Shown: one piece after another, positions 7,867 to 56,878 of the stretch | Numbering within the stretch: position 1 is the stretch's first letter | Layout: each line of letters begins with the position of its first letter | DNA from: Nanobdellota archaeon | GTDB taxonomy: Archaea > Nanobdellota > Nanobdellia > Pacearchaeales > GW2011-AR1 | Assembly (NCBI GenBank): GCA_027334715.1 | Contig: DAHWUG010000001.1 | Coordinates: 15,324 to 79,323, forward strand | Length of the DNA: 64,000 nt | Reading direction: 5' to 3' | Notes under the pieces: model-generated | Database searches by the model: none | The model's input: only the letters and a program-made list of their open reading frames with translations | Told to the model about the DNA's origin: nothing | Position numbers and translations under genes: made by a program

Positions 7867-8571
7867 ATGAAAGGCCAACATTCTGAATTAGTCAAAGAGC
7901 ATTTTGATATTAAATACAAAGGTTATGACAAATTAATAAAAAAGCTCATTCCTAATTATGAAAGAATGCATAGCTTAATACTAAAAAACTTGCGTTTTAA
8001 TAAAGGTATAAAAATTAAAGTTCTTGACTTAGGTATTGGAACCGGAAAAACTTCTTTGGAAATTTTTTTAAAATTTCCAAATGCTAAAATTGATGGTGTG
8101 GATATTTCTAAAAACATGATTAAACAAGGCAAGCAAAGACTTAGAAATTATCTTTCTAGGCTGAGTTTTATAGAACAAGATGTAGCAAAGCTTAGTTTAC
8201 AGGGGAAGTATGATACTGCTGTTTCTGTATTATGCATACATCACCTAAATTCCAAACAAAAACAGATATTATTTTCTAAAGTTTTTGATTTATTAAAGTG
8301 GAATGGAATATTTATTATAGCTGACATCGTAAAATTTGATTCCAAAAAAGAAACAGCAAAAAATGAAAGTAAATGGAAACATTTTTTAATAAAAAATTTA
8401 GGGAAAAAAGAAGGGCAATATTGGTTTGATAATTACCTTGAAGAAGACTTGCCAAGCTCTGTTCGAAACCAATTAACATGGCTAAAAAAAGCTTATTTTA
8501 AAGAAGAGAAAGAAATTTTTGAACATATGAATTATTCAGTATTTTACGGAAAGAAAACTATAAACTTCTAA
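7867..8571 (+). CDS. class I SAM-dependent methyltransferase embedded in the pilus operon
   Basis: 234 aa; motif I VLDLGIGTGKTS; motif II/post-I DGVDIS; its start lies 1 nt after the ATPase stop. Confidence 0.7.
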   Translation: MKGQHSELVKEHFDIKYKGYDKLIKKLIPNYERMHSLILKNLRFNKGIKIKVLDLGIGTGKTSLEIFLKFPNAKIDGVDISKNMIKQGKQRLRNYLSRLSFIEQDVAKLSLQGKYDTAVSVLCIHHLNSKQKQILFSKVFDLLKWNGIFIIADIVKFDSKKETAKNESKWKHFLIKNLGKKEGQYWFDNYLEEDLPSSVRNQLTWLKKAYFKEEKEIFEHMNYSVFYGKKTINF

Positions 8572-40500: not shown

Positions 40501-43500
40501 CTCCTTCTGTAATAGGAAGCTTGTCAAGCAGTTTGAATGGAGTTTTTCCAGATGGAATACCTACTGGAAACGGAAATCAAAAAATTAACATTAATGATAT
40601 AACAAAACAAATAAATTCAAACACTGCAACGCTTTCACAAATGGAGCAGCTGCAGCTAAATATAGGATTGCTGAATTCAAATGACCAAACTGTTGCATCA
40701 ATTGCAAAGAATCAGGTACAGACAATACTTACCCAGATTAACAGCAACTATCAGGCAACTGCACAGCAGACAGCTGCTAATCAAGCATCACAAAATGATA
40801 TTGATAATGCACATGCAATTGTTTTGGCAGGACCAAATGCCAAAGAGCTGATATACTATGGTTCTACAGCCAAAGATGGAAATAAATTTGGAATTGCAGC
40901 AGGCACACCTGTTGCAGTAATTGTATTTCAAAACCAGCAATATACTCTTGAATTAACTCCTGTAGCAGGAAGCGGGAATACCTATGCAATAAAAAATGTT
41001 TATGATGACAGCACAGGAAATAATTTAGACCATGAAAATGCAATTTATGCAGAAATAATAAAAACAATTTCTGACTTTAAAGCTTACACTACAGACTCTT
41101 ACAAAAATCAGTATCTTAACCCAACTCTTCAATATTATGAAACAGGGCAGTATGCAGGATTGCCTGCAATTGTTCCATTTGATCTGCAAAATGGCTGGTA
41201 TGCTGTTATAAAATCAAATCTTCCAATTTTAGGAGGGCTGACTTCTTATGATGCATCTGGAAGAGTTTCTGCCTTTTATGTGTGCAATGTTGGCCCAAAT
41301 GGGAGGGAAGAAGACATGGGAGGGGATGACATATGCGGACAATTTGTTCCAGGAACAAATCAGCCACCTGTCTTTACAGGGCTTGATTCTTCACAATCAT
41401 TAGAATTAATGAATAAAGCTACAGATGCAATTAAGCAAGCATCTTCTATTAAACAAAAAACAGGAATTGTACTTATTAATGGGCAAAAAATCCCTATTGG
41501 GCAACCATCAACAGGCACGCCTGTAATACAATGCGAGGATTTCATGTCTCCCAGCGATTGCAATATCTTATTCAATGTATGTGATCCTTTTGTATGCCCT
41601 TCAAGCAGATGCAATCTCGGGGGAGCTTACCCTGTTCAGGATGTTATCCAGTCCGGAATTATAGGAAGCCTTGCACTTTGTTATCCAAATTTTCCGCAGG
41701 TAAAAATACCAATATGCATTTCAGGGGTAAATGCAGGATTGCAGGGTTATATCAGCGTTCTTAAATCATACCAGCAGTGTCTGCAAACAAGCCTTAATAC
41801 AGGGCAGCAGGTTGGTATTTGTAGTGAAGTAAATAGCATTTACCAATGCCAGTTTTTCTGGAAGCAGGGAATACCTATAATAAATTATGCCCTTCCAAAA
41901 ATAGCTGGAAGCGTTTTAGGACAGAATTCTGGAACAGGCGGAGGGGAGTATTTAGCAGGCACAGATGCTGTTACAAATGCACAAAAATCAATTGATTATT
42001 TTAGCCAGTTTTATGCTGCAAATTCGTACAAAGCATTCCAGGAAAGGTCAACAGAGGGTGTAGGAGATGCTGTCTGCAAAAACTTTATCTCATTGACAAC
42101 GCCAAATGGAGGAGACTTATTTAATACATTAATAACTCCCGATTCACCTGTGCAATTTTACGGGCAGTTTGATGAAGCTCCTTACACAACTGCAACAAAT
42201 CCCCCAACGTCTCAGTATAATGTATTTTACCACATTTATGCGGGAACAGATTTCCCAGCTTATTATCAAGTTTATCTGAAAGGCTCTCAGAGCTCATTTT
42301 ACCAGGATACATCTGTAAGCAGGGTTGTTGCAACAGGTGTTGTTCCTATAGGACAGTTTACAACAAACACGAGTGTTTTCACAGCCCCATCTGGATATCA
42401 GCAATTATGCATTGTTGTCAACGGACAGGAGCAATGCGGATTCAAACAGGTAACAACTGAATTTGGAGTAAATTACCTGCAGCAGCAGTATTTATCTTCA
42501 CAGGCAAAACAGACAAACATAACTTCTGAGGCAAATTGTGTTTCTGGAACTCCAAGCGTTTACAATTTATTGAATCCAAATGTGCAAGCAGGTGTTACAA
42601 ATACAATAAATCCTGCAATTTACAATCAGGGAATAATAAGAATATGCTCTACAAATAGCCCAGGTCAGGGAACAGATGCAAACTGGAATACTCAAAATGC
42701 ACGATGGCAAAAAGTTGGCTATTGTGATACACCAAATATTGGGTGTTGGCTTGATACACAAAGCGTCACTAATGTTATAAAAGACACAAACATTGCAAAT
42801 TCAACTTTGCGGGCAACAAGCTCACAATTTGTCCAGCAATTGCAATCACAAAATGGATTCTTTGATGACCCCGGGTTTGCTTCATACATATCTTCCTTAA
42901 ATACATTGAAAGATCAAAAACAAAATCTTCAGATAATAAGCTCAATAACACAAAATCTCTCAAAAGCTTCTCTAAGCAATCAGAAAGCAGAGCTTTATTT
43001 AATAAGAGGAAATGCATATACTTCTGTTGCAATCCAGGGATTTGATGCTGCTTCAGCTGGTTCAAAATCCTTGTGTGTTACATGTCTTCAGGCAGGAAAT
43101 GATTGGTGCGGAAGTTCTTCATCAGCACAATGTGTTCCTTCTGGAACATGCAAAATAAGTGATACAATAAAAGCTGCTTATGGTTATTCTGGAATAAGCC
43201 TTTCTAATGCAACAGACAGATGCTCTGTTTTCACCAATGGAATAAAAACATCATCAGGCACTGCAGCAAACGGAGGTTCATGCACTGTAAACTCTGATTG
43301 CCAGTCAAACTATTGCGATACTGCTAATGGTATTTGCACTGATTCTTCAACAATCATTGGTTCTACAGGAAATAAAAATCCAACTGGTGTAATAAATACA
43401 CAAACGCAACAAATTTTTGGAGCTAGTTATCCTATTTTTGAGTTTCACACTGCCAGAATTTATGATATTATAACTTCTTCAGATTTATTATATACATTCT

Positions 43501-44675
43501 ACCAAAATAATTGGTATTGGTGCATAATGTCTAGTGGTTGTCCAATTACTTCTGGAACACCTATACCGGACAACACTTACTGGAAACTTGCCGGAAATCC
43601 AGGAACTTCTGTATCATTAAGTGATAATAATCTTAATTTCTTAACATCTCTTGGAACTGTTCATACTTATTCAGGCGGATTAGCATTATTAATACAAAGA
43701 ACAATTACAAATCAGGAAGGAGGTGGACTTAAACCATTTGGGTTTACAATATTAAGCTCTGATGATAAATTGTCCACAAGTAATGTTGACTATACCCCTG
43801 ATGGAATTTTTACAATTCATACTCCTAATAAATATGATTTTTATCTTATTCATGCTCAAAGCACATGGCAGTGGAATACTTATTCTGGGCAGCCACTTGA
43901 TTCTTGGCCTTATGTTACATCTACTTCATCTAATGGACAAAATCCAACTACTGCTGATTTAAGTTTAATACAAAGTTTAGTGGGGCTAAATGGACTTAGT
44001 GGAGCTCAAATAATCTTTGGGGGCAGTGCAATTTCATCTTCAAATTCAGGAACAGGAAATGCAATAGGCACATGTTCCAGCCAGACAAGCTGCCAGCAAT
44101 TATTGGGAAATGAAATAATAAGATTGGCACAGCAAGTGAAACAGGAGAATAAAAATATTGTTGATTCAAATATTCAAGCACAGACAGGAGCAAAATCATT
44201 TGAATGCCTTGCATTACAAATTGCCATGGTTGAAAGCACTATCCAACAATGTAACCCTCTCCAGCAGAATAACAATCCGTTATATTGTGAAGGAACTCCT
44301 GATGAAGTATATGCTAACACAAATAATGGGGAAAGTAGTTTTGGAATTATGCAAATAAATACAGCTGGTCAGTATAGTCATTGTGGAGACTCATGGAAAG
44401 ATGGGACCTCATTGTCTTCTGATTTAACCCAGTGCAAAATTCAGCTTTCAAATCTTGATACAGATATAAAAGAAGGATTAAACATTTTAGTTAGTGGGTC
44501 TAATGGCGGTCCAAAAACATTTAGCTGTCAAGGAGCACAAGATCAAACATACAGCGGGTGGACATATGCAATAAGAAATTACAATGGCTGGGGATGTCAG
44601 AATCCAGGTTATGTAGACAAAGTTATTAATGACAAACAATTAGTTGCTAACCTTTTCCCCTCTGTTTGCGGTTGA
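37518..44675 (+). CDS. giant secreted protein (2385 aa) with C-terminal family-1 lytic transglycosylase (SLT) domain
   Basis: N-terminal signal/TM; S/T/N/Q-rich repetitive beta regions; C-terminus carries AMVES (catalytic Glu-Ser), GIMQI and AIRNYNGWG motifs of the SLT fold plus many Cys. Confidence 0.8.
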   Translation: MKKEKMQKKGILTSKKFNTATIIGLSLFLTLFFISIISAQGSYIRSAPAYTYGYQAGSFFGLQNYPQVDSNMCNNRQDFILQVDPLGCTPSVVTSDLLEQQNVAVFCPIVATQLNPLISVSAINNMVLANPPGSSFSNNIAGVNYFPSQAALGQYNPSISSPYLGNIGYATIILRQQPNESAMPEFVQGNLTAQISYNIKNAWGVGSASYFLPQLSDTDFNKNINAYSFWNGKGFIRLDSADNTKAVISVYSGVSGAAGSSTAKTKVATFNLKTGETSSDIYLPGFALCMGGLKVHLQDLENPDTTAKLIVDSSVTDLRKGDTFLDGRCTVKSISKQGINQNVQILCNEDQQESNFLLGINPKVNLSINGTTKTYSVGDYLFDYLNPKDQQHYSVYLGFIGNNGKANLDSDIYIRTLLIPTKNGGTETKLTNDEISYVAGYDEAVKGSDLKQGISGQIVDGGKAVFATISQILRGGLSGKYLSYLQYGSSDTNFPTDGQTKLRIVGYAGVYDTDLSQLPKPTQDSYNSAMSDYQTIINNYAGETYPSGSSVTEGQQALQQAIDLANQFGQKRTVLQLCQQYSQSYGADSGIPPICSDNALLSSTSVSEQSVIINGQSHVISFYGITQPTFDQYGVIISVQNPDGTYRDPADLQKGDVLYLTQETDYAYTTGSIFNGNRITVYYRYDNTAGWQWSVDKSVWMPVRTVIISGGKNPGELTSSEQISMINQLNKNGQGSKTFDDGKQLLTDSGASPQTNEQYIQLAHLTADTATFNTYLGTGTFTSALPQQKIKLGAVDTFGSQYTFALQKINLQQVAKVSIEPDINYAHSNASFSFKIGIEKRNIQLTPNETKQRIKDLNNTINKWQSLQNSLNSVVKVGKAACIITEGTLLVKNFIANLGGAGAARQLAMRSPGGWDDQCQKAVTSNSQINGKGPFTTVENCLQANSPAVDASVNAYDAALKAQNDNIQTLSQGLPTTTVAGEKVTDNAQLFDKISPSVIGSLSSSLNGVFPDGIPTGNGNQKININDITKQINSNTATLSQMEQLQLNIGLLNSNDQTVASIAKNQVQTILTQINSNYQATAQQTAANQASQNDIDNAHAIVLAGPNAKELIYYGSTAKDGNKFGIAAGTPVAVIVFQNQQYTLELTPVAGSGNTYAIKNVYDDSTGNNLDHENAIYAEIIKTISDFKAYTTDSYKNQYLNPTLQYYETGQYAGLPAIVPFDLQNGWYAVIKSNLPILGGLTSYDASGRVSAFYVCNVGPNGREEDMGGDDICGQFVPGTNQPPVFTGLDSSQSLELMNKATDAIKQASSIKQKTGIVLINGQKIPIGQPSTGTPVIQCEDFMSPSDCNILFNVCDPFVCPSSRCNLGGAYPVQDVIQSGIIGSLALCYPNFPQVKIPICISGVNAGLQGYISVLKSYQQCLQTSLNTGQQVGICSEVNSIYQCQFFWKQGIPIINYALPKIAGSVLGQNSGTGGGEYLAGTDAVTNAQKSIDYFSQFYAANSYKAFQERSTEGVGDAVCKNFISLTTPNGGDLFNTLITPDSPVQFYGQFDEAPYTTATNPPTSQYNVFYHIYAGTDFPAYYQVYLKGSQSSFYQDTSVSRVVATGVVPIGQFTTNTSVFTAPSGYQQLCIVVNGQEQCGFKQVTTEFGVNYLQQQYLSSQAKQTNITSEANCVSGTPSVYNLLNPNVQAGVTNTINPAIYNQGIIRICSTNSPGQGTDANWNTQNARWQKVGYCDTPNIGCWLDTQSVTNVIKDTNIANSTLRATSSQFVQQLQSQNGFFDDPGFASYISSLNTLKDQKQNLQIISSITQNLSKASLSNQKAELYLIRGNAYTSVAIQGFDAASAGSKSLCVTCLQAGNDWCGSSSSAQCVPSGTCKISDTIKAAYGYSGISLSNATDRCSVFTNGIKTSSGTAANGGSCTVNSDCQSNYCDTANGICTDSSTIIGSTGNKNPTGVINTQTQQIFGASYPIFEFHTARIYDIITSSDLLYTFYQNNWYWCIMSSGCPITSGTPIPDNTYWKLAGNPGTSVSLSDNNLNFLTSLGTVHTYSGGLALLIQRTITNQEGGGLKPFGFTILSSDDKLSTSNVDYTPDGIFTIHTPNKYDFYLIHAQSTWQWNTYSGQPLDSWPYVTSTSSNGQNPTTADLSLIQSLVGLNGLSGAQIIFGGSAISSSNSGTGNAIGTCSSQTSCQQLLGNEIIRLAQQVKQENKNIVDSNIQAQTGAKSFECLALQIAMVESTIQQCNPLQQNNNPLYCEGTPDEVYANTNNGESSFGIMQINTAGQYSHCGDSWKDGTSLSSDLTQCKIQLSNLDTDIKEGLNILVSGSNGGPKTFSCQGAQDQTYSGWTYAIRNYNGWGCQNPGYVDKVINDKQLVANLFPSVCG

Positions 44676-44711: not shown

Positions 44712-44795
44712 TGCGGGAGATAGGATTCGAACCTATGCAAGCACTAAGCTAATGGGTCCTAGGCCCACTCCGTTTGACCACTCCGGCACTCCCGC
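44712..44795 (-). tRNA. tRNA-Leu (type II, anticodon UAG), unusual C33
   Basis: acceptor GCGGGAG/CTCCCGC, long variable arm, anticodon loop CCTAGGA, T loop TTCGAAT. Confidence 0.65.
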
Positions 44796-45449
44796 ATTAA
44801 ATAAGTTTGCATATTGTGGTTTAAAAGTTATTCCATAATACTCTTTTCTATACTTTTTATGAACCCATTTATCTTTTAAAATAGGAACTTTAAGGCTATT
44901 AAAAATTGAATCTAAATCCTTCCACATTTGTTTGCTTGCAGTTGATAACCCATAACCCCTCCTTCTTTTTCCCCCCTCTGTCGCTAATAATCCCTTAAGG
45001 AAGGCTATTTTAATCTCTTTGTTTGAGTTTAAAATACATTTTGGAATTTTTACTACATCACTCTTCTTCCCTGAAGGAATCCCAAAAACATTTTTTAATA
45101 AATTATAAATTGCTTTACTATCAATGCACATGTGATATGTTTGCTGTTTACCTTCTCTTAATTTTACTTTTGTGACATTAAATTTTCTGTTAAATAGACT
45201 AACACATAATTTTGATATATGCTTTATCAGATTCCAATTTGTTAATTCTATTGTTGTTTGAGTCTTACTTTTTTTTAGATGACCATCCCCTATAATACAC
45301 CCGACAAAAAATGCTAACTCATCATTGATATACAAAGGAATTTTTGTTAGTTTTGAAGGACCGTATTTTGCTTTAACAAAGATTTTTTTATTATTTCTTG
45401 AAATTACATTTAATCCATTTTGAGAATTAATTACATCTTTTTTGTACAT
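44733..45449 (-). CDS. LAGLIDADG homing endonuclease, free-standing; ORF tail reads into tRNA-Leu
   Basis: Two LAGLIDADG motifs LAFFVGCIIGDGHL and IAFLKGLLATEGG; the last ~21 codons overlap the tRNA 5' half. Confidence 0.65.
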   Translation of the reverse strand: MYKKDVINSQNGLNVISRNNKKIFVKAKYGPSKLTKIPLYINDELAFFVGCIIGDGHLKKSKTQTTIELTNWNLIKHISKLCVSLFNRKFNVTKVKLREGKQQTYHMCIDSKAIYNLLKNVFGIPSGKKSDVVKIPKCILNSNKEIKIAFLKGLLATEGGKRRRGYGLSTASKQMWKDLDSIFNSLKVPILKDKWVHKKYRKEYYGITFKPQYANLFNAGVPEWSNGVGLGPISLVLA

Positions 45450-45537: not shown

Positions 45538-46473
45538 TTACTTTGCCTTTACCCTTATTTCATTCTCTTTCTGCTTTATCTTTTCCTCCAGGTCAAGTTT
45601 TTCTATGAGTTCCTTGTAACGGTTTCTTATTGTGACCTCTGTTATTCCTGCAATGTCTGCAACTTCCCTCTGTGTCTTTTTTTCATCATTGATTAATGCA
45701 GCAACGTAAAGAGCTGCTGCTGCAATTCCTGCAGGGCCCCTTCCTGATGTCAATTCAACATCTTCTGCACGTTTTAAGACCTTGAGCGCGTCATTCTGCG
45801 TTTTTGGAGAAAGTTTTAGAACAGAAGAGAAACGGGAAATGTAATCTTTTGGAGAGCTCTGGTTTACCTTTATTCCAAGCTTTCTTATAATAAATCTGTA
45901 TGTTCTTCCTATTTCCTTTCTTTCCACATCAGAAGCTGTTGCCATTTCATCCAGGGTTCTTGGAATATTGTAGCTTCTACATGCTGCATAAAGGCAGGCT
46001 GCAATCACAGATTCCATGCTTCTTCCACGTACAAGACCTCTCTGAAGAACATAATTGTAAATTCTTGCTGCATCATCTCTTATTACATTTGGCAGATTCA
46101 AATATGAAGAAATAACCCTTAATTCAGCCATTGCAAGCCTTAGATTTCTTTCAATGCTTGTTGAAACGCGCTCCTGCCATTTTTTTAGCCTTAAGAATTT
46201 TCTTGTCTGCTTTGGCTCAAGCCTGTATATGTCTGATATTTCTCCAACATTTGTCGTAAGTCCTCTGTCAAATTTCTGGATGCTTGTTGGAGCTCCGCCA
46301 CGGCCTTTTTTCTCGCTTTTGTCAAACTTTCCCTGCAAATCAATGCCAGTATCAACCATTTTTTCCTCGACGACAAGACCACAGTCATTGCAGATAACTT
46401 CACCCAAATGAGAATCATATGTAAGGTTAATACTTCCGCATTCAGGGCATTTTCTTATAGAAGATGATGGCAT
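45538..46473 (-). CDS. tfb: transcription initiation factor IIB
   Basis: N-terminal zinc ribbon CPECGS...CNDCG, B-finger, two cyclin repeats. Confidence 0.9.
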   Translation of the reverse strand: MPSSSIRKCPECGSINLTYDSHLGEVICNDCGLVVEEKMVDTGIDLQGKFDKSEKKGRGGAPTSIQKFDRGLTTNVGEISDIYRLEPKQTRKFLRLKKWQERVSTSIERNLRLAMAELRVISSYLNLPNVIRDDAARIYNYVLQRGLVRGRSMESVIAACLYAACRSYNIPRTLDEMATASDVERKEIGRTYRFIIRKLGIKVNQSSPKDYISRFSSVLKLSPKTQNDALKVLKRAEDVELTSGRGPAGIAAAALYVAALINDEKKTQREVADIAGITEVTIRNRYKELIEKLDLEEKIKQKENEIRVKAK

Positions 46474-48390: not shown

Positions 48391-48513
48391 GCCCCTGTAG
48401 CTCAGCCTGGATAGAGCGCCTGCCTTCTAAGCGAAGGAAGGAATTCTTCCCATTTCTCTTTTAGAGGAAAAGAAGAAAGCAGGAGGTCGCAAGTTCAAAT
48501 CTTGTCGGGGGCG
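48391..48513 (+). tRNA. tRNA-Arg (anticodon UCU) with an intron of about 48 nt
   Basis: acceptor GCCCCTG/CGGGGGC, D arm GCTC/GAGC, anticodon stem CCTGC, loop CTTCTA then intron then GCAGG, T loop TTCAAAT. Confidence 0.7.
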
Positions 48514-48521
48514 TTAAACAT

Positions 48522-48594
48522 GCGGAGATGGCACAGTGGCTACTGCATTCGGCTGCAGCCCGAATTTTCGTGGGTTCGATTCCCACTCTCCGCT
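48522..48594 (+). tRNA. tRNA-Cys (anticodon GCA)
   Basis: acceptor GCGGAGA/TCTCCGC, anticodon loop CTGCAGC, T arm GTGGG-TTCGATT-CCCAC. Confidence 0.8.
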
Positions 48595-48781: not shown

Positions 48782-49216
48782 TTACTTTGTTAAATCAAGA
48801 TAACCATCTTGCATTCTGATTTTATTCTTCGGATAAGGAATGTCTCTTGGTTTTTCCTCGTGACCCTCTTTTCTTAAATCTGATCTTGTTTTTTCCCTAA
48901 AATTCTTGAATTTCTGTACTGTATGTGCTTTTATTATTGCCTGATGGAAATTAAAAACCACCAAGAAAAAAGTTATTGATATGATAAGTGTGATTATATC
49001 CAAAGAGTAAGGGATTGGGTTAAGAATTGCAGAGGTAATAAAGATTTGCTGTAGTCTTCTTATAATCAGCAAAAAGAGAGTTATAATAAAAAAAGTAAAT
49101 GCAGTTCTTGCTTTTCCATCAAGTCTTTTTCTTGTGCTTAGCATTAAAAGAGATGATAACATATACAAGATCAGTATAACAAAGCTTATTGTGACAACAA
49201 TGTAATCTAATGCCAT
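48782..49216 (-). CDS. membrane protein, 4 TM
   Basis: 144 aa, hydrophobic helices. Confidence 0.45.
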   Translation of the reverse strand: MALDYIVVTISFVILILYMLSSLLMLSTRKRLDGKARTAFTFFIITLFLLIIRRLQQIFITSAILNPIPYSLDIITLIISITFFLVVFNFHQAIIKAHTVQKFKNFREKTRSDLRKEGHEEKPRDIPYPKNKIRMQDGYLDLTK

Positions 49217-49217
49217 T

Positions 49218-50909
49218 TTACTTTTTTAATAAATCTTTCAAATCCACCTTTTCCTCTATTTTTTTGCCCGTCTTTTTTTTGTGCCTCTCTCTTCTCGTTA
49301 TTGCATAATAAATAGCTGCACTTAGGGCAATGCTTAAGATAATTATAACTATTATATATATTTTTTCTTGCTGAGAAACAGCAGATGCCGCAACATTAAA
49401 TAACACACTTGAGCTAGCGATTTTTCCACTATAACTTACGCGGACATAAAGCACATACTGCCCATCAGGAGTTCCCCGCGGTATCTTAATTACTTGAGTA
49501 AAGCTTGCTTGTGTTTCAACTGCAACAGTACTACTGGAATTAGTTATTACCTTTCCATTGCTATCCTCTATTATGCAATTCATATTTGCATCAATTCTTC
49601 CTGTCTCTCCAAGGTTATACAAGGCAATATCTGCAATTATGTCATTTCCAGGACTTATTGTTTTATAACCATTTGGAATTGTTGCTTGCACATCGAAGAG
49701 ACTTTGCTTTGATTCAATATCTACTGCAACAATAACTTCCTTGCTGATTACTCCGGCAGTTATGATAATATTCCCTAAATAGATATTTGGAACAGTACTC
49801 TCTGTTGCTAAGAAATCAAAGCTTATGTTTTTTGATTCTCCCGGATTTAATGAAAATGAAGAATTGTCAATCTTTATGAAATCTACAAGTTTATCTTGTC
49901 CTAAATTAATTGTTAGGGGAGATGTCCCTGTATTTTTTATAACCAAACTTGCTTCTTTTATTTCTCCTTGATTAAGCTTTATACTAAGATGATCTGAAGA
50001 TAATGTAAATGATAAAGGAGCATATCCCCCTCCGCCTCCTCCGCCTGATGAAGTAATTGTTGGTGTTCCTCCAGAAGGAGTTTCTTCTGCGCTGTAAGTG
50101 CTGAATCCAGTGACATTAAAAATTAAAGTTCCGTCTAAGTAGCTTTGCTTTGTGCAAATTGTTGCAGGGCAGATAGAACCATCTCTTAATATTACAGGAT
50201 TTGAAAATGTTAAATTGTAAAGATAAAGGGTTGCAGAAGTATTAAAATTAGGAAGTGCAGTAGAATTTACACTTATACTATCAGAAGATATTGATGTATA
50301 GTTATCCAAACTTACGGCATTATCACTTAAATTTATACCTCTTGTAATATTAATTGTCTGATTGAATGCTATTTTTCCATAGTTTGTATTTTCCAGAACA
50401 ACATTGCTTAAATTCTGAAGATCCTTATAAGATAACTTGTTGAAATTTGTTGAACTCCCTCTTTCTGACCCCGAATAATTGCTGTAATAGACTATGAATT
50501 TACTTGAATTAACAGTGAAAGTCACACTGACTATGGAATTTCCGTTGGTGTTATTTGCATATAAATAGAGAGTGTGGATTCCTTGTGTCACGTTAAAAGT
50601 CGTATTGCTGTTTATTGTTGTGTTTGTTCCATTATCAATTCTGTACAAAACATAATCAGCGCTTAATGCTGTAAAATTTAAAGGAAGATCATTACCCGCA
50701 AAATAAGTGCTGTTTTCAGGATATGTTAATAGCAAAGTTGGTGGGCCTGTTACAATTATTGATAAAGAAGCTGTTGCACTTGTTGCATTTCCTGTTATAA
50801 TACTGCCTGTAACTGTTTGCCCTGTTATAGGGCCGGAATTTACTGTTCCTATGAAAAAAATAAGGAATGCTGCCGAGACTAATAATAAAAATCCTTCCTC
50901 TTTTTTCAT
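49218..50909 (-). CDS. N-glycosylated cell-surface protein with signal peptide and C-terminal TM anchor
   Basis: 563 aa; dense NxT/S sequons, GGGGGG linker, C-terminal TM followed by an RRERHKKK tail. Confidence 0.6.
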   Translation of the reverse strand: MKKEEGFLLLVSAAFLIFFIGTVNSGPITGQTVTGSIITGNATSATASLSIIVTGPPTLLLTYPENSTYFAGNDLPLNFTALSADYVLYRIDNGTNTTINSNTTFNVTQGIHTLYLYANNTNGNSIVSVTFTVNSSKFIVYYSNYSGSERGSSTNFNKLSYKDLQNLSNVVLENTNYGKIAFNQTINITRGINLSDNAVSLDNYTSISSDSISVNSTALPNFNTSATLYLYNLTFSNPVILRDGSICPATICTKQSYLDGTLIFNVTGFSTYSAEETPSGGTPTITSSGGGGGGGYAPLSFTLSSDHLSIKLNQGEIKEASLVIKNTGTSPLTINLGQDKLVDFIKIDNSSFSLNPGESKNISFDFLATESTVPNIYLGNIIITAGVISKEVIVAVDIESKQSLFDVQATIPNGYKTISPGNDIIADIALYNLGETGRIDANMNCIIEDSNGKVITNSSSTVAVETQASFTQVIKIPRGTPDGQYVLYVRVSYSGKIASSSVLFNVAASAVSQQEKIYIIVIIILSIALSAAIYYAITRRERHKKKTGKKIEEKVDLKDLLKK

Positions 50910-50942: not shown

Positions 50943-51491
50943 TTATCTTTTTTTCTTTCTTCTTGCAATCAAAAGCAAAATACCTACTACAATGATAAGC
51001 CCGATAATCACATACAAGAGCGTGCTATTTGTGTTTGACGACTTATATAGCAAACTCTCTGAATTATTGACAACTTCAACAGGAATTGTTGTTGAAAATG
51101 CGCTTGCTACATGAAGCATGCCACCCTGTCCTGATGAGATTTCATTGAACAAAACATTTATATCATATGTTTTTCCAATTTGTGCATTTTTTGGGAGCTG
51201 TATGTAAATATTAACTGGGACATTATCACTTCCCAAGGGCACGAAATACTGGGAGCTGTTTTCTGTAATTGTTGCTATATTGCCTTCGCTTGAAATTGAG
51301 GCGTTGACAGTTATGTTTTCTCCTCCAACCATATTCTGCAAAGCTAGTGCTATTGTTGTTGATTCACCTGGAGCCAGCTTTAAAGGATTCTGGGGCCAGT
51401 AAGGTGATGCAACCCCCGATGCAGAAATAAATGAAATTACAACTGCTAAAATTCCCAAGGATATGAGGGTTGTGATTTCTTTTTTTTCCAT
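50943..51491 (-). CDS. small cell-surface protein with signal peptide and C-terminal TM anchor
   Basis: 182 aa; C-terminal IIGLIIVVGILLLIARRKKKR. Confidence 0.55.
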   Translation of the reverse strand: MEKKEITTLISLGILAVVISFISASGVASPYWPQNPLKLAPGESTTIALALQNMVGGENITVNASISSEGNIATITENSSQYFVPLGSDNVPVNIYIQLPKNAQIGKTYDINVLFNEISSGQGGMLHVASAFSTTIPVEVVNNSESLLYKSSNTNSTLLYVIIGLIIVVGILLLIARRKKKR

Positions 51492-51529: not shown

Positions 51530-52441
51530 TTATATCATCATGACTGTCCATGAACCATATGCCGCTGATGAATATGATTGTGAGCTTATACTTTGTGGGA
51601 CTCCTTTAAGGCAGAAGTACAAGGGCTCCTGTCCAGATGTTCCGTTATTGTAATTTAAGGTATTGTTTCCGGAGTAAATCCAAGCAGTTGTAACGTTAAT
51701 GGATGTTGCATTTAACATTGATGTTCCACTGCATCCTGCTGTAACATTGTCCACACTTAAGTTATTTGCGTAGATATACTGTGTTTGCGTTGTTTCCCCG
51801 CGAAGATCATATGCTGTTATATTAATGTTTGATATCTGCTTGTTTCCTGTATTATTTATAATAATAGGATTATTGCTTGAGCCAATATTTGAACTTGCCA
51901 GTGTTATTGCTGACCATGTTAATGATGTTGGCGACATTGTCATAGATGTTAATGTATTATATGTGAATGTTGTAGTTGAATTCTCAACATAATTTCCTAG
52001 CGTATCCTGTATTGACACATTTATTGTCCATGAACCTGGCTTGTCAAAATACCACATATATATTGTACAGGTGTAGTTCTTGTTATTTCCAACTGCCGCA
52101 TAAGGAAGACAGCTCGTATTGCTTCTTGTTGCCTGTCCTGCCATCTGGAAGCTTGCTTTTGCTGTTGTATCATTCAGATAGCTGGGTCCATTTCCATCGC
52201 TAGCTGTGAAATTGAATTGTATTGCCTTTGTTCCAGATTCTGTAGGATTTGCTGCAGAAATTGCATCAACATACGGAATTGTTGGTGGATTGCTTTGCAC
52301 TGTGATATTCAGAGCTGTTGTCCCGCTTGTTGCTTTACCAGTTACCTTACCCCATAAATCAGAAAAAATATTTGCTGATGCAAATGATATAATAAACACT
52401 GCAAAAATTGTCAAAATAAAAAATAAATACCCTCTCTTCAT
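51530..52441 (-). CDS. cell-surface protein consisting of one copy of a ~260-aa module duplicated in the next gene
   Basis: PPTIPYVDAISAANPTESGTKAIQFNFTA...CSGTSMLNATS block about 75-80 percent identical to residues ~935-1215 of the 1411-aa neighbour. Confidence 0.6.
   Translation of the reverse strand: MKRGYLFFILTIFAVFIISFASANIFSDLWGKVTGKATSGTTALNITVQSNPPTIPYVDAISAANPTESGTKAIQFNFTASDGNGPSYLNDTTAKASFQMAGQATRSNTSCLPYAAVGNNKNYTCTIYMWYFDKPGSWTINVSIQDTLGNYVENSTTTFTYNTLTSMTMSPTSLTWSAITLASSNIGSSNNPIIINNTGNKQISNINITAYDLRGETTQTQYIYANNLSVDNVTAGCSGTSMLNATSINVTTAWIYSGNNTLNYNNGTSGQEPLYFCLKGVPQSISSQSYSSAAYGSWTVMMI
52027..52150. repeat. near-identical (122 of 124 nt) segment shared with 53561..53684
   Basis: direct comparison of the two paralogous surface-protein genes; further identical blocks at 51705-51757 versus 53240-53292 and about 52200-52288 versus 53740-53822. 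Confidence 0.8.
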
Positions 52442-52481: not shown

Positions 52482-55400
52482 TTATTCATTGATTTTGTTT
52501 ATTTTATTTTTTGCCCTTGAATAAACCGTCCATATATTCCTTTGGTCCCTTTCCAGCATCTGGGCTATCTCGCTGAATTTGAAACCCCTATTTTTTAAGT
52601 ATAATATTAATGATTCAAGGATTGTGCTTTCTCTTTTTGCAAAAACAGATAATGGCACTGACAATTTAGTTTTTGCATCAAACCTTTCTTCTTTTTTCCC
52701 TTTTGCCTTTTTATAAGATGTCCAGACTGTTCTTTCATCCCTTAAAATTGCCTTTGCAATTTCACTATAACTCATTTTCAAATTTTCTTTCATGTACTTT
52801 ACAATAGATTCCAGTGCTCCAAGCTCTTTTGAGAAAATAGAGACTGGGATACTTATGCTTTCACCAATCATTTCTGATATCTCTTTTTTGCTTATCCCAT
52901 AATTGTCTGCCACCCTTTCAATAACTTTTTCAACAACTTCATTACTTTTTAGGTCGGAATCTTCCTTTATTCTTTCTATTATGAGGTCAAGCGCCCCGAG
53001 GAGCTTGTCTTCTCCCTTCTTTTTCTGTTTCTTTTTTCTTCTAGTTGCGGGGATTACTGCAACAAGGAGAACCTTTACAATCCATGAGCCATAGGCAGAG
53101 GATGAATATGACTGTGTAATAAGATTTTGCGGAACTCCACGAAGGCATATATACAGCTCTTCCTGTCCAGATGTTGCATTGTTATAATTCATGGTGTTGT
53201 TTCCCCTCTGAAGAACCGCATTTGTCACATTTACTGACGTTGCATTTAACATTGATGTTCCACTGCATCCTGCTGTAACATTGTCCACACTGAAATTGTC
53301 TGCATAAATGAAATAATTCCCGTTTTGCTCACCTACTAGGTTATATGCTGTTACATTAAGGCTTAATGCTTCTGCATTACCTGTATTGTTTACAACAAGG
53401 GGATTATTTGTTGCACCCACATTTGCGCTTGTAAGATTTAATACTCCCCAGCTTAATGAAGAAGGAGAAACAACCATCGAAGTCAGCTGATTGTAAGTGA
53501 ATGTTGTTGAACTGTTTTCTCCATACGCTTGTGAATTGTCAAGGATAGTTGCATTTATCGTCCATGAACCTGGCTTGTCAAAATACCACATATATATTGT
53601 ACAGGTGTAGTTCTTGTTGTTTCCAACTGCCGCATAAGGAAGACAGCTCGTATTGCTTCTTGTTGTCTGTCCTGCCATCTGGAAGTATGCTGCAGCTGAC
53701 GAATCATTAAGATTTGACGCACCATTCAAATCCTGAGCTGTGAAATTGAATTGTATTGCCTTTGTTCCAGATTCTGTAGGATTTGCTGCAGAAATTGCAT
53801 CAACATACGGAATTGTTGGTGGTGAATTTGCAGAAGTTGTTTGGTATGTGAAGATGTCTGTTGCATTCAAATTGCCTGCTGTGTCATTAGTATAAAATCT
53901 CCATCTTATTGTTGAGCCGGAAGTGAAGTTTACACTTTTTGTAACATTACTCCAATTTGAGACTCCTGTCATTCCTATAAAACTATCGTTGACAAATGTC
54001 CCCGTGCCATTGTCAAAACTAAAAATATACCCACTTAATTCATTATTATCTGACCATAACAAGCTGTGTTGTACAGCTTCTCCTGCTTTTGTTGAGTTTG
54101 TCTGATTATTGCTCCATGTTGGCGCTGTTGAATCCATACCAACTACATAACTGTTGTTTAGTCCTGTATTTCCCAGTGTATCATTTGCATATGCATTTAT
54201 TGTCTGGTTTCCATCTGTAATTCCTGTCAAAGCATATGTTCCATTGCACCATCCAGAAGAAATAGCAACTGTCTGGTTTGCATTTCCTGCAACATTTACA
54301 GAACAGTCGTCAGGACCGACACCTGAATCTGTCACTGATACATTAAATATGAGGCTTTGTGTACTCCTATAGAATGTAGCATTTGTATAAACTGGCAATG
54401 TTATTACGGGTGAGGTTGTATCTATTGTGAGAGTCCTATTTGCTGCTGCAAAAGCGCAGTTTCCAGATGGATCACATGACTGATAATTCCATACATATAC
54501 TCCATCAGATATACTTGAAATAGTAAAATTAGTCTGGCTGTTATTTATTGGAGAAGAATTTGTTTGGGTTGCTGCCCATGTTCCGGATGTGTTTGTATAA
54601 ATTGAAACATTTGAAACCTCAAAATTATCATTTGCTATTCCGCTGAAGGTTATAGAAGATGAGGATGAATTCTGGCTGTTTACAGGGGAACTTAATGTGA
54701 CTATAGGAAAAATTGTGTCAACTAAAAATGTGTTGTTTAAACTAGAGAAATTGCAGGCACCATTTGAATCACATGACCTGTAATTCCATCTATAAACTCC
54801 ATTTGGAATTCCGGTTATTGTAAAAACCGTTGGTGTATTATTTATAGGCGAAGAGTTAGTCTGGTTTGCCGTCCAGCTTCCTGAAATATTCGTGAATACA
54901 GAAACATTTGACAGAGGGTATTGATAAGAAACTGCAGTTCCATTGAAAGTTATGTTAGAAGAGCTTGAGTTATATGAATTAACAGGTAAATTTAGTAATA
55001 TTTTGATGTTTGAAGGGGGAGCTGAAACAATATACTGTACTGCGCCGCTTATCCTTGCTGAGCTGCCATCTGCAGATTCTGCTGGTTCGTAGCACCTTAC
55101 ATTATACGTCCCTGTTTGCGTGAAAACAAGATTATGTGCTGGCTGGGAGGTATTTGTAGGAGCATTTACACTCGACAAAGATCCTGTGTCTGGATTAGAG
55201 CCATTTACTGTTATTGCTGTGCTCGAAGACATATTTGCCCATCCAGAAGATGACGTGTTGAACTGCAGGTATGTATTCACACTTCCGCTTCCTGTTGCTC
55301 CTGAGCCAGCCTGCTCAAAGATACAATAGGCAGTAACTGCATCATTTGTATTTAGCGCTCCTGTTGCGTTTGGTGCATAATAAACATTGTCCACAACAAA

Positions 55401-56717
55401 TATTCCGGGCTTTCCATCATGTATGAAATCATAAGAAACAGAATTGCCCACAGATTTCAAGTCAAAAACATCTTGACTTCCTTTTAAATCAGGAAGCGAG
55501 ATGTAATAGACCCCATAAGTCACATTATCAATTCTGCCAACAAGAGTATTTGAACTTTCTTCATAAACTAATATGGACGCGCTTTCATTATCCCTCACAA
55601 AGATGTCAATGACATTCTTATTTGTAAGATTCGCTGCAAAAAATGCCCTTACATAATCATTTTTTGGTATGGTAAAAGTTATATTGTCTGTTTGATTTAC
55701 ATAACTATAAATACTTCTTATGAAACTTCTATTTGCGCTGAGCCATTGAGCATCTGTTATTATGATTACATAAGTCTGGTTGCTCAAGTGGGGCGCAATC
55801 CATGAGACATAATCATAAATACCATCGTAATTTGTGTCTTTCACAGAAAGAGGTGTTATATAACTGCCATTTTCTTGCCAATAAATCTTTACCTGCGAGG
55901 GATTTGTTATATGCAAAGACTCTGAAAGGTTTGTGAAAACAAGGACATTTGTATAATGGACAATGTCTGGTCCAGAAATCCTGACGATTTTCCCAGACTG
56001 GGTATTTTGTTCTGTTGCTGTTGGTGCAGGAGTCTCGTAACTAATTTCATAATCTGTTGAATTTGTTTTATTAATGTCCATCTGAATCTGTTGAATTGGC
56101 TGCTGAACCACGAAGCCAGTTATTCTTCCAATACTACTGAGAAAACTGCCAGAAGCTGATGTTTTTGAAACAGAAAAAGCATTTCCTGAACTTATGTTTT
56201 CTGCTTCAGAAGGCAAAATCAATTTTATGCTAGAAGGCCTTTCCAATGAAACTTTTTTTATCCACTTGACTGGCTGGTTAAGAACTGCCTGCTGCTGTAT
56301 TGTTGTGACTATTGCGTTTACTCCAGGCTCTGTCGCGATTTCCTGTCCATTCTGGACGGCAAAACCTGTTGTCTGGAGATTTATCTGATTTAAGAAAAAT
56401 GCTGCAAGAATGATTGCAATGAAGACAGCAGAAATGACAGGCGCACGGATTTTATTTATACTCTTTTTATGTTTTTCAATCAGCTGTTTGCACTCTTTTA
56501 TGTAATTGTCATAGTACTCTATCCACTGTTGAATATTTCTTCCATCCCTGCTTAAGTGGAGCGTCTCGATATAAAATTTGAATGATATTTTTCCAGATAT
56601 ATAAGCATGATAAAGTCTTTTAAGATAGCTTTCAAAATACCTTTTTCTTTCTTCAGCAGCCCCTATATTTTTTCTTAACTCTCCTATGAAGGCTTTTGCT
56701 GATTTGACCTTCCCCAT
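52482..56717 (-). CDS. giant (1411 aa) two-TM surface protein with a cytoplasmic C-terminal tail carrying two HTH-like repeats
   Basis: cytoplasmic N-terminus, TM, about 1100-aa glycosylated ectodomain, second TM (IVKVLLVAVIP), then tail with SYSEIAKAILRDERTVWTSYKKAK and KFSEIAQMLERDQRNIWTVYSRAK repeats. Confidence 0.7.
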   Translation of the reverse strand: MGKVKSAKAFIGELRKNIGAAEERKRYFESYLKRLYHAYISGKISFKFYIETLHLSRDGRNIQQWIEYYDNYIKECKQLIEKHKKSINKIRAPVISAVFIAIILAAFFLNQINLQTTGFAVQNGQEIATEPGVNAIVTTIQQQAVLNQPVKWIKKVSLERPSSIKLILPSEAENISSGNAFSVSKTSASGSFLSSIGRITGFVVQQPIQQIQMDINKTNSTDYEISYETPAPTATEQNTQSGKIVRISGPDIVHYTNVLVFTNLSESLHITNPSQVKIYWQENGSYITPLSVKDTNYDGIYDYVSWIAPHLSNQTYVIIITDAQWLSANRSFIRSIYSYVNQTDNITFTIPKNDYVRAFFAANLTNKNVIDIFVRDNESASILVYEESSNTLVGRIDNVTYGVYYISLPDLKGSQDVFDLKSVGNSVSYDFIHDGKPGIFVVDNVYYAPNATGALNTNDAVTAYCIFEQAGSGATGSGSVNTYLQFNTSSSGWANMSSSTAITVNGSNPDTGSLSSVNAPTNTSQPAHNLVFTQTGTYNVRCYEPAESADGSSARISGAVQYIVSAPPSNIKILLNLPVNSYNSSSSNITFNGTAVSYQYPLSNVSVFTNISGSWTANQTNSSPINNTPTVFTITGIPNGVYRWNYRSCDSNGACNFSSLNNTFLVDTIFPIVTLSSPVNSQNSSSSSITFSGIANDNFEVSNVSIYTNTSGTWAATQTNSSPINNSQTNFTISSISDGVYVWNYQSCDPSGNCAFAAANRTLTIDTTSPVITLPVYTNATFYRSTQSLIFNVSVTDSGVGPDDCSVNVAGNANQTVAISSGWCNGTYALTGITDGNQTINAYANDTLGNTGLNNSYVVGMDSTAPTWSNNQTNSTKAGEAVQHSLLWSDNNELSGYIFSFDNGTGTFVNDSFIGMTGVSNWSNVTKSVNFTSGSTIRWRFYTNDTAGNLNATDIFTYQTTSANSPPTIPYVDAISAANPTESGTKAIQFNFTAQDLNGASNLNDSSAAAYFQMAGQTTRSNTSCLPYAAVGNNKNYTCTIYMWYFDKPGSWTINATILDNSQAYGENSSTTFTYNQLTSMVVSPSSLSWGVLNLTSANVGATNNPLVVNNTGNAEALSLNVTAYNLVGEQNGNYFIYADNFSVDNVTAGCSGTSMLNATSVNVTNAVLQRGNNTMNYNNATSGQEELYICLRGVPQNLITQSYSSSAYGSWIVKVLLVAVIPATRRKKKQKKKGEDKLLGALDLIIERIKEDSDLKSNEVVEKVIERVADNYGISKKEISEMIGESISIPVSIFSKELGALESIVKYMKENLKMSYSEIAKAILRDERTVWTSYKKAKGKKEERFDAKTKLSVPLSVFAKRESTILESLILYLKNRGFKFSEIAQMLERDQRNIWTVYSRAKNKINKINE

Positions 56718-56878
56718 TACTTACTATTTATGTATATATCCTTATAAATTTATGTAATATAATAAAAATACTTATTATTTATGTACTAAGAAAATAATCT
56801 TTTACTTCGAATTCATGATCTCCGTAATATATCTTTAATTTCAAAAAAGTTTTTAAAAGAAATATTCCTTAATGATCA

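Follow-up and report, generated by a model that had tools for sequence, protein, structure and literature searches.

The surfaces of DPANN archaea (Diapherotrites, Parvarchaeota, Aenigmarchaeota, Nanoarchaeota, Nanohaloarchaeota), most of which are uncultured, carry giant proteins assumed to mediate attachment to a host, and to our knowledge essentially nothing is known of how these giants are regulated. The stretch of Nanobdellota DNA analysed here, 64,000 nucleotides of contig DAHWUG010000001.1 ("the window"), encodes such a giant, a two-pass surface protein of 1411 amino acids (aa) whose open reading frame (ORF) occupies positions 52482..56717 of the minus strand as the first gene of a four-gene operon. 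The subject of this report is the C-terminal tail of that protein, which bears two helix-turn-helix (HTH) repeats, together with the DNA boxes in the promoter of the operon that the tail probably binds. Parts of the operon, its promoter and its products are given below by their minus-strand positions in the window.

The protein opens with a basic, conserved cytoplasmic domain (residues 1-91; 56445..56717), a helical hairpin with the motif ..DG+.I..WI.YYD.YI..C.., which leads into a signal-anchor, the first transmembrane (TM) segment or TM1 (residues 92-110, APVISAVFIAIILAAFFLN; 56388..56444). TM1 has a Kyte-Doolittle hydropathy over 19 residues (KD19) of 2.44, and basic residues (KHKKSINKIR) precede it on its N-terminal side. 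The ectodomain (residues 111-1211; 53085..56387) is rich in Asn, Ser and Thr, contains Ig-like repeats and a weak match to Big_3_3 of Pfam, and holds all 65 N-x-S/T sequons of the protein, with none in the N-terminal domain and none in the tail; its length among orthologs ranges from 1000 to more than 5000 aa. The membrane-proximal part (residues 966-1217; 53067..53822) is a paralog of the 303-aa protein encoded downstream. A second apolar segment, TM2, of stop-transfer type (W1212-T1225, WIVKVLLVAVIPAT; 53043..53084), is conserved as an apolar stretch in 58 of 65 fused proteins and is followed by the polybasic cluster RRKKKQKKK (residues 1226-1234; 53016..53042), the counterpart, in alignments, of the basic N-termini that free-standing proteins described below possess. 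The run IVKVLLVAVIP and RRKKKQKKK, which an earlier note on this DNA had singled out in the 1411-aa ORF, is present at residues 1213-1234, and the tail, put there at ~185 aa, measures 186 aa (R1226-E1411; isoelectric point (pI) 9.7). Past the polybasic cluster the tail comprises a helical linker (residues 1235-1287; 52857..53015) with a degenerate HTH-like element (..NYGISKKEISEMIG..) that also occurs in the free-standing homologs, HTH repeat A (residues 1288-1342; 52692..52856) and HTH repeat B (residues 1352-1411; 52485..52664), the recognition helix of which, RDQRNIWTVYSRAK, is nearly invariant in the module family. Two independent contigs carry the identical 1411-aa product, and the same architecture is found in orthologs from more than 60 DPANN genomes. 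Among the fused proteins both cytoplasmic ends are conserved and the ectodomain is variable.

That the tail contains two repeats of ~55 aa with the pattern of sigma-70 region 4 and LuxR-type HTH units had been proposed from the letters of the DNA, and repeat alignment, profile search, structure prediction and structure comparison all bear this out. Repeats A and B share 25 of 55 residues (45% identity, 71% positives, E 6e-16), a similarity that, judged by alignment, is far above chance. Searched alone, the tail matches the Pfam model Sigma70_r4_2 (PF08281) at 28.4 bits, above the gathering cutoff of 25.7, with one stretch per repeat; the score is 27.8 for a 212-aa segment and falls to 21.3, below the cutoff, for the whole 1411-aa protein. 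The same model is matched by 54 of 65 module-family members (best E 7e-14). The linker yields weak HTH_24 and Xre-like matches, and NCBIfam gives sub-threshold matches to Tfx, EnfR and SigX/SigJ models, restricted to the HTH portion. An AlphaFold2 (AF2) model computed with 65 homologs has a predicted local distance difference test score (pLDDT) of 94-98 across both repeats, each of which folds as a short strand (IPV) and then three helices; the helices of the linker score 60-85, the TM2 helix scores low, and the ~60-aa linker as a whole is flexible (50-85). In Foldseek comparisons with the Protein Data Bank (PDB), a single repeat superposes on EnfR (8HNO/8HNP; 40% identity, probability 1.0, root-mean-square deviation (rmsd) 0.6-1.0 Å) and on the DNA-binding domain of RcsB (32% identity, rmsd 0.7 Å, probability 1.0); VqmA, SdiA, QscR and a sigma region 4 (sigF r4) also superpose with probability 1.0, and the superpositions on EnfR, RcsB, VqmA and sigF r4 cover 42-50 residues at an rmsd of 0.6-1.0 Å. 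We regard it as nearly certain that each repeat has the sigma-70-region-4/LuxR-type HTH fold. Conservation within the module family is highest at recognition-helix positions (R-D-x-R-T/N-I-W-T-x-Y-x-R-A-K-K).

A feature missed by the earlier note is that the tail, to go by its alignments, is a complete protein of a widespread free-standing family. Queried with the tail, databases return 141 proteins, nearly all of 120-270 aa and from metagenome-assembled genomes (MAGs) of Woesearchaeota and Nanoarchaeota. Free-standing proteins of 160-190 aa can be aligned with the tail over its whole length, from the polybasic start through the 'YxLSxxEI' element of the linker to the C-terminal end. These homologs have a pI of 9.2-10, no TM segment and no signal peptide (maximum KD19 0.65-1.48). 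An exhaustive profile search gathers 2268 clusters (at 50% identity) at E<=1e-3, 1452 of them at <=1e-30, with lengths from about 150 aa to 5919 aa, the largest family member; the free-standing module of Woese-, Pace- and Nanoarchaeota is ~170 aa. Some members hold two modules: tandem modules (four HTHs) are seen in some giants (L043, L045, L060, L069, L079) and also in some free proteins of ~320-370 aa (P0121-P0130). Among GTDB species representatives, 305 loci encode the module, and the best 80 of these 305 come nearly all from MAGs labelled DPANN, with four under bacterial or Methanosarcinales labels. Loci L015, L076, L080 and L081 present a typical DPANN cassette within Bacillota, 'bacterium' or Methanosarcinales bins and are probably mis-binned. 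Automated annotation calls these proteins 'hypothetical' or, at most, 'CsgD family' (JGI, two homologs), and the searchable literature holds no description of the module family, its linkage, its architecture or its boxes.

For linkage counts, ORFs were re-derived around 92 copies of the module. In 66 of the 92 the module is the C-terminal tail of a long ORF; homologous tails on other surface proteins, suggested earlier as a check, do exist. Complete, intact fused ORFs span 1194-3401 aa, and many others reach the end of their contig (the longest at 3545 aa). Most free-standing module genes lie directly upstream of a membrane-protein gene and overlap its start by 4-40 nucleotides (nt); the partners are giants in most loci examined and membrane proteins of 194-318 aa in some. 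Whether through fusion or through overlap from upstream, the module is locked genetically to genes for membrane surface proteins. The relation between the two arrangements is plain at locus L007, where a 1329-aa giant orthologous to that of the window, which it matches in N-terminal domain, in ectodomain landmarks and in last domain, ends at ..GLWTVSIQ with neither TM2 nor tail, and where the overlapping upstream gene is the module. In the closed genome AR20 both fused and free-standing arrangements occur at one locus (L085). The fusion, which is ancient and widespread, would hard-wire a pre-existing pair of regulator and membrane partner, since in sister lineages the module is a soluble protein, and its gene runs into the start of the partner's gene. 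At L041 (~8000-8030) the linker is interrupted by one in-frame TAA (..YSLNNK*TTEV..), which splits a 1400-aa giant from a 150-aa module ORF precisely at the domain boundary; a sequencing error, a nonsense mutation or a read-through site could each account for it.

The promoter of the operon carries three boxes. The distal box R1 (GTACATAAATAATAAGTA; 56769..56786) lies at about -69..-52 from the ATG, scores 23.4 with the position weight matrix (PWM) described below, and is conserved in position in ~30 species. In the middle box R2 (TTACATAAATTTATAAGG; 56740..56757) the 3' half is a TATA-like TTTATAAG, at -31..-24 from the ATG, and 'TACATAnATTTATAAG' is conserved at this box in aligned promoters. 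The proximal box R3 (ATACATAAATAGTAAGTA; 56718..56735; PWM score 24.9) abuts the start codon, between the TATA element and the inferred transcription start site (TSS), and is the most conserved promoter element across species. The core TACATAAAT is present in six copies in the window (1.3 expected), three of them within the 70 nt before the ATG of the giant. On either side of the TATA box, and partly across it, module-bearing operons in general have 18-bp direct repeats (consensus ATACATAcATAATAAGTA), and a common architecture is found upstream of tail-bearing giants in ~30 species, the proteins of which are just ~50% identical. At ~-70 stands a distal box, ATACATAnATAATAAGTA; next, TACATAnA runs directly into the TATA-like element; and a proximal box, 52 nt (five helical turns) away from the distal one, stops 1-2 nt short of the ATG. 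The position of the TATA-like element would imply a leaderless or near-leaderless mRNA, with the TSS placed by the usual archaeal TATA-to-TSS distance. A scan for bacterial sigma-70 promoters and terminators gave 32 sites (31.7 expected) and is uninformative for an archaeon.

How specific the boxes are to these operons is seen from a PWM built from proximal boxes and run over 2.52 Mb at a threshold of at least 17 bits, with locally shuffled sequence as the control. The scan yields 97 matches (1-2 in shuffles), all but two on the strand of the module gene in their locus. Of these, 64 lie within 90 nt upstream of tail-bearing giants, and seven more precede giant ORFs that were not counted as tail-bearing (alternative start codon, or tail split by a stop). 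Another seven are upstream of free-standing module genes, which had no part in PWM training; 17 have no ORF in range and are mostly extra distal copies in the same promoters, and two are elsewhere. On both strands of the window only R1 and R3 reach the threshold. A second giant ORF in the window (37518-44675, plus strand, 2385 aa) has neither an HTH module nor a promoter box. The association also holds when the search starts from DNA: the double-box pattern alone, run against metagenome contigs, found 12 loci, of which 11 have an ORF for a giant with the N-terminal domain downstream, starting 1-2 nt from the end of the box in 9 of the 11, and the only complete ORF among them (L092, 2274 aa) ends in a tandem-HTH tail.

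In free-standing lineages that lack the canonical boxes, the promoters hold variant boxes (TACTTA-type) as two to five direct repeats, such as TACTTACATAnACAG, four times in L003, and TAC[T/C]TA..T.AAATAG, three times in L007. The 5' half of the box, TAC[A/T]TA, and the recognition helix of repeat B are nearly invariant; the 3' half and the helix of repeat A are variable. Judged qualitatively, this is suggestive of co-variation between protein and operator. There is also a second class of free-standing modules (~170 aa), in which the recognition helix of repeat A has diverged (..NPIALAVTY..). Representatives are found at L074 (12587-13099), L077 (14763-15281), L078 (13110-13619) and L087 (16699-17211); in the giants that follow them the N-terminal domain is replaced by a short basic N-terminus and a lipobox-like ..I[ST][SA]C, and the promoters of these modules carry box variants of TACTTA type.

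The three genes that follow the giant also encode surface proteins. Gene 2 (51530..52441) specifies the 303-aa protein, which has an N-terminal signal/anchor, copies the membrane-proximal domain of the giant and ends at ..YGSWTVMMI without TM2 or tail. Gene 3 (50943..51491) encodes a surface protein of 182 aa in which RRKKKR comes after a C-terminal TM, and gene 4 (49218..50909) one of 563 aa with a signal peptide, a C-terminal TM and a basic tail. Gene 2 comes after the giant in 45 of 50 loci, and genes 3 and 4 are conserved in 44 and 45 of the 50; the order giant, ~305 aa, ~185 aa, ~555 aa is kept in ~45 of 50 loci with enough sequence and is also found at L001. A 144-aa multi-TM ORF (48782-49216, minus strand), the last of this string of genes in the window, is in the cassette of only one of the 50 loci. 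The gene-2 product and the membrane-proximal domain of the giant are 71% identical over 252 aa. Such pairs have a median identity of 63.5% within a genome (37-87%, n=41) and orthologs ~36% between genomes; because within-genome identity exceeds that between genomes, comparison of the sequences indicates concerted evolution or gene conversion between gene 2 and the proximal domain, and it offers a hint that the two interact homotypically at the tail's base.

Nearly every tail-bearing giant has the N-terminal domain (~90 aa, motif WIxYYDxYI), and so do many of the proteins paired with free-standing modules, among them membrane proteins of 194-224 aa whose genes directly follow that of the module. 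The AF2 model of the domain (pLDDT ~95) has helices at 2-40, 46-54 and 62-122, the last running into TM1. Comparison with Pfam and with PDB sequences gave coiled-coil noise and no family match, a structure search with the model gave generic coiled-coil hairpins (AcrA/MacA/HlyD, F1 gamma; E at least 0.19), and homolog searches with the domain returned nothing, or two proteins only. As a candidate anti-sigma domain (ASD/ZAS) it was rejected: it is a two-helix hairpin with a single conserved Cys, where an ASD has four helices and a ZAS the motif HxxxCxxC, and has no similarity to these domains in sequence or fold.

On which side of the membrane the tail lies depends on the junction between ectodomain and tail. 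One pattern at this junction, ..YST..G[SA]W[TE]I[RK] with 8-10 apolar residues and the polybasic cluster behind it, recurs in 58 of 65 fused proteins. The distance from the Trp to the cluster has a median of 13 aa, typically with 12-14 apolar residues, R or K stands at W+3 in 46 of the 58, and 6-10 K/R occur within 12 residues past the apolar stretch in nearly all fused orthologs. A stretch that varies freely yet is always apolar, followed by such a cluster, is in sequence terms the behaviour of a stop-transfer anchor. Summed over all loci, sequons per 100 aa number 5.12 in ectodomains, 0.54 in N-terminal domains and 0.60 in tails. The tail is quite likely cytoplasmic, because a positive-inside polybasic cluster follows the hydrophobic segment, because free-standing homologs, having neither signal peptide nor TM, must be cytoplasmic, and, more weakly, because the tail differs in composition from the N/S/T-rich, sequon-enriched ectodomain. 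The earlier description of a second TM helix stands as regards a conserved apolar stretch with its polybasic cluster, and is weakened by the marginal length of that stretch.

The interpretation that we favour, on balance, is that the tail is a membrane-tethered tandem HTH that binds the boxes of its own promoter and so autoregulates the four-gene surface operon. The circumstantial support for a regulator is strong, because the module is locked to surface-protein genes and the boxes occur at essentially only its operons. As envisaged, the tandem HTH would be held at the cytoplasmic face of the membrane by the short stop-transfer segment of a glycosylated two-pass giant and would bind the 18-bp direct repeats, each of which contains two related hexamers ~11 bp apart (TACATA ... 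TAAGTA), with one HTH for each half-box. Negative autoregulation, possibly as cooperative repression, would be the default expectation, given a proximal box between TATA and the inferred start and a middle box that overlaps the transcription factor B recognition element (BRE) and TATA; activation from the distal site may occur instead. With the module fused to the product of the first gene, the capacity for operator binding would be proportional to the giant inserted, so that the amount of giant in the membrane sets the amount of operator-binding domain. DPANN cells are a few hundred nanometres across, and in so small a cell a domain tethered on a linker of ~60 residues could reach the nucleoid without being released.

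Several observations weigh against this interpretation. At ~13 residues from the Trp to the polybasic cluster, TM2 is of marginal length for a TM segment; the gene-2 paralogs end at about W+5, which suggests that SWT[IV][RK]I may be the last beta-strand of the proximal domain, with 8-10 apolar residues left for TM2. The sequon density of the tail is about what its composition predicts and is thus weak evidence of topology. Whole-model Foldseek E-values are weak (at least 0.019), matches being confined to single repeats, and the best E-value of a sequence-profile search against the PDB is 0.035. The box resembles a BRE/TATA unit (TACATAnA + TAATAAG), its conservation may derive in part from core-promoter function, and another factor could bind it. 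For a transcription factor, moreover, to be fused 1:1 with an abundant structural protein is an odd stoichiometry.

Other explanations of the locus have to be set beside autoregulation from the membrane. That the giant is an artefact, an error of assembly, frameshift or gene calling that joins a surface-protein gene to a small regulator gene, could be suspected from the prevalence of small proteins among database homologs and from the relative L001, a scaffold with Ns beside a repeated domain. This can be practically dismissed: the identical 1411-aa ORF is on two contigs, and the uninterrupted fusion with its conserved junction is found in more than 60 species-level genomes from independent studies, one of them closed. 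It is virtually certain that the fusion is real and conserved. Read-through is also impossible as its origin, because the free module gene lies upstream of its partner and so cannot yield a C-terminal fusion; simple fusion by loss of a stop codon, which needs the module gene downstream of the gene for the membrane partner, was rejected on the same ground. Very unlikely, if less remote than an artefact, is a receptor for extracellular DNA, in which the apolar stretch does not span the membrane and the tail, lying outside, binds environmental or host DNA much as ComEA does, to the benefit of a nucleotide-auxotrophic symbiont. DPANN archaea are thought to depend on external nucleotides, and TM2 is below the canonical length of a helix. 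The free-standing homologs must, however, act in the cytoplasm, the cluster of 6-10 K/R past the apolar stretch is a classical stop-transfer signal, the tail is far poorer in sequons than the ectodomain, and the conserved boxes at the giant's own promoter would be left unexplained.

Two further rivals accept a cytoplasmic tail, and both seem improbable to about the same degree. In one, the tethered tail is inactive until proteolysis after a surface event, such as contact with a host, frees it to act on the boxes, by analogy with SREBP/ATF6, RsgI-SigI and the processing of CadC/TcpP. The architecture would permit this (long ectodomain, short TM2, flexible linker), the freed product would match the natural free-standing protein, and the in-frame stop of L041 divides giant from module at the same boundary. 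One stand-alone module and giant pair has a gene for a signal-peptide-peptidase (PF06550; L005, 15068-16000) a few kb downstream; the conserved cassette at other loci showed no such gene. Neither a scan of ten neighbouring products nor the conserved cassette revealed a protease, nor was a cleavage motif identified, and in cells this tiny release is unnecessary for reaching DNA; the proteolytic release raised in the earlier note thus finds no support. In the other, the tandem HTH docks not on DNA but on the N-terminal hairpin of the giant, or on some other cytoplasmic partner, closing the two cytoplasmic ends of the giant or organising the assembly of surface proteins, and the boxes are bound by a different factor or are core-promoter repeats. 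Consistent with docking are the conservation of both cytoplasmic ends next to a variable ectodomain, the translational coupling of free-standing modules to partners that have the N-terminal domain and a TM (some of only 194-224 aa), a gene order like that of extracytoplasmic function (ECF) sigma/anti-sigma pairs, the confidently predicted helical hairpin, a typical docking surface, and the BRE/TATA-like look of the box. Against it, recognition-helix positions are the best conserved of the family, the proteins are strongly basic (pI 9.2-10), the N-terminal domain is missing from some partners, where a short basic N-terminus and a lipobox-like signal take its place, and this domain is not detectably similar to anti-sigma domains. 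Since sigma region 4 (sigma4) binds both DNA and anti-sigma factors, docking and DNA binding need not be exclusive.

Membrane-tethered autoregulation is also distinct from the contact sensing that the earlier note attached to the tail. Gene linkage and operon-specific boxes give the tethered regulator circumstantial support; coupling of the surface to transcription stays speculation, and no evidence supports contact sensing, the ectodomain being the part that varies and the cytoplasmic ends the part conserved. A response to a signal of this kind is doubtful. As an idea for further work, and an equally tentative one, the giant might be a sensor of host contact or surface state in an episymbiotic archaeon, and engagement of the ectodomain, or pairing of the proximal domain with its co-evolving 303-aa mimic, then alters the oligomeric state or tethering of the tail and so switches the promoter with the 18-bp boxes. 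If true, DPANN lineages would have built a one-protein pathway from surface to promoter out of a sigma4-like regulator and its membrane partner, and no cis/trans circuit of regulation would have been defined before it for the surface giants of DPANN archaea.

Transmembrane transcription regulators of bacteria and archaea have been surveyed (Demey et al. 2023, PMC10269533; see also PMC11856585), and the text of the former survey mentions neither DPANN nor Sigma70_r4. With a recognised DNA-binding domain and at least one TM in a single chain, the giant is a putative member of this class in its operational sense. Like ToxR, TcpP, CadC and ChiS/TfoS, it combines a DNA-binding domain, a membrane anchor and an extracytoplasmic part, and promoter binding from the membrane, the expected action of those proteins, is predicted from sequence for the giant. 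ToxR and CadC have an N-terminal winged helix of OmpR/PhoB type, a single pass and a small, C-terminal periplasmic sensor; the giant instead has a C-terminal tandem HTH of sigma4/LuxR type, two passes and a structural ectodomain (1100-5000 aa). A ToxR/CadC-like assignment was rejected, there being no Trans_reg_C match, a C-terminal DNA-binding domain of sigma4 type and two TM segments.

The closest structural relatives of a single repeat are archaeal. EnfR (TON_1525) is a DNA-binding repressor of the Tfx family whose HTH has been described as sigma-70-r4-like (PMC10570040). This family (EnfR, PDB 8HNO; Tfx, MTH0916) provides the best single-repeat structural match, and its HTHs, archaeal and sigma-r4-like, bind promoter DNA. 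In Tfx proteins a single HTH is combined with an acidic alpha+beta C-terminal domain and the dimer is X-shaped, whereas the tail has two tandem HTHs and no Tfx C-domain. Membership was rejected, as TIGR00721 scores 20.5 bits (cutoff 60.25) and the EnfR model NF053597 22.6 (cutoff 260), only profile positions 11-52 align and the C-terminal domain is absent. HTHs of LuxR/FixJ/GerE type (RcsB, SdiA, QscR, VqmA) share the fold and the motif pattern L(S/T)xxExxhhxh...S..EIAxxLxhSxxTVxxHxxxhxxKL of the repeats; the tail differs in that it has no receiver or ligand-binding domain and that its HTHs form a tandem in one chain, not a dimer of single domains. Among the Pfam matches listed for the tail and its homologs, the GerE model is absent. 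AraC/XylS proteins likewise have two HTHs per chain, which bind adjacent major grooves, and direct-repeat sites, and a site of ~17-18 bp would fit one box per module; they are of another HTH family, and the whole-model Foldseek match to Rns is non-significant (E 0.059, TM 0.27).

We know of no sigma factors in Archaea, and a bacterial sigma factor was rejected as the identity of the tail: Sigma70_r2, the region that binds core RNA polymerase and recognises the -10 element, has no match in it or in any of 65 homologs, NCBIfam sigma models align over the C-terminal 30-40 residues only and far under cutoff, and the genome is archaeal, with a TFB gene. The split form of the module nevertheless recalls operons of ECF sigma factors with membrane-bound anti-sigma factors, where a sigma4-type gene lies upstream of, and overlaps, the gene for a single-pass membrane protein; the partner has an N-terminal cytoplasmic helical domain and an external domain, and the operon's own promoter carries the presumed recognition element, an arrangement that implies autoregulation. 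Unlike ECF sigma factors, the module has no sigma2 domain, its partner's N-terminal domain is not anti-sigma-like, and a second TM joins the two partners into one protein in the window. The resemblance is one of analogy, not homology. A role of the HTHs and repeats in a site-specific recombinase or transposase was likewise rejected, since there is no catalytic domain and the direct repeats are fixed relative to TATA and ATG.

The HTH fold and the principle of membrane tethering are already known; what is new is the tandem module family, its obligate partnership with membrane surface proteins of DPANN archaea, the two-pass C-terminal fusion and the operator-like boxes. The analysis thereby defines a large, unannotated family of tandem sigma4-type HTH proteins along with a conserved, operon-specific cis element, and adds an archaeal, C-terminally tethered, two-pass architecture to the known membrane-bound transcription regulators. 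It gives a concrete binding hypothesis, tail plus 18-bp box, that is testable in vitro without cultivation of the organism, and box, N-terminal domain and tail together form a sequence signature by which such operons can be located in metagenomes. Lineages with split and with fused modules offer a natural comparison for the contribution of tethering.

The remainder of the window is low-GC archaeal DNA (33-38% GC) in which genes for an Sm-like protein and RNase Z adjoin the locus. The TFB gene is at 45538-46473, and adjoining it is an ORF with LAGLIDADG/homing-endonuclease-like matches (44733-45449, minus strand). A search with Rfam for structured RNA in the region found two tRNAs within 48391-48594 and nothing more. 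These adjacent tRNA genes, at 48391-48513 and 48522-48594 on the plus strand, lie just downstream of the cassette, and the first of them, at 123 nt for a 71-position model, probably contains an intron.

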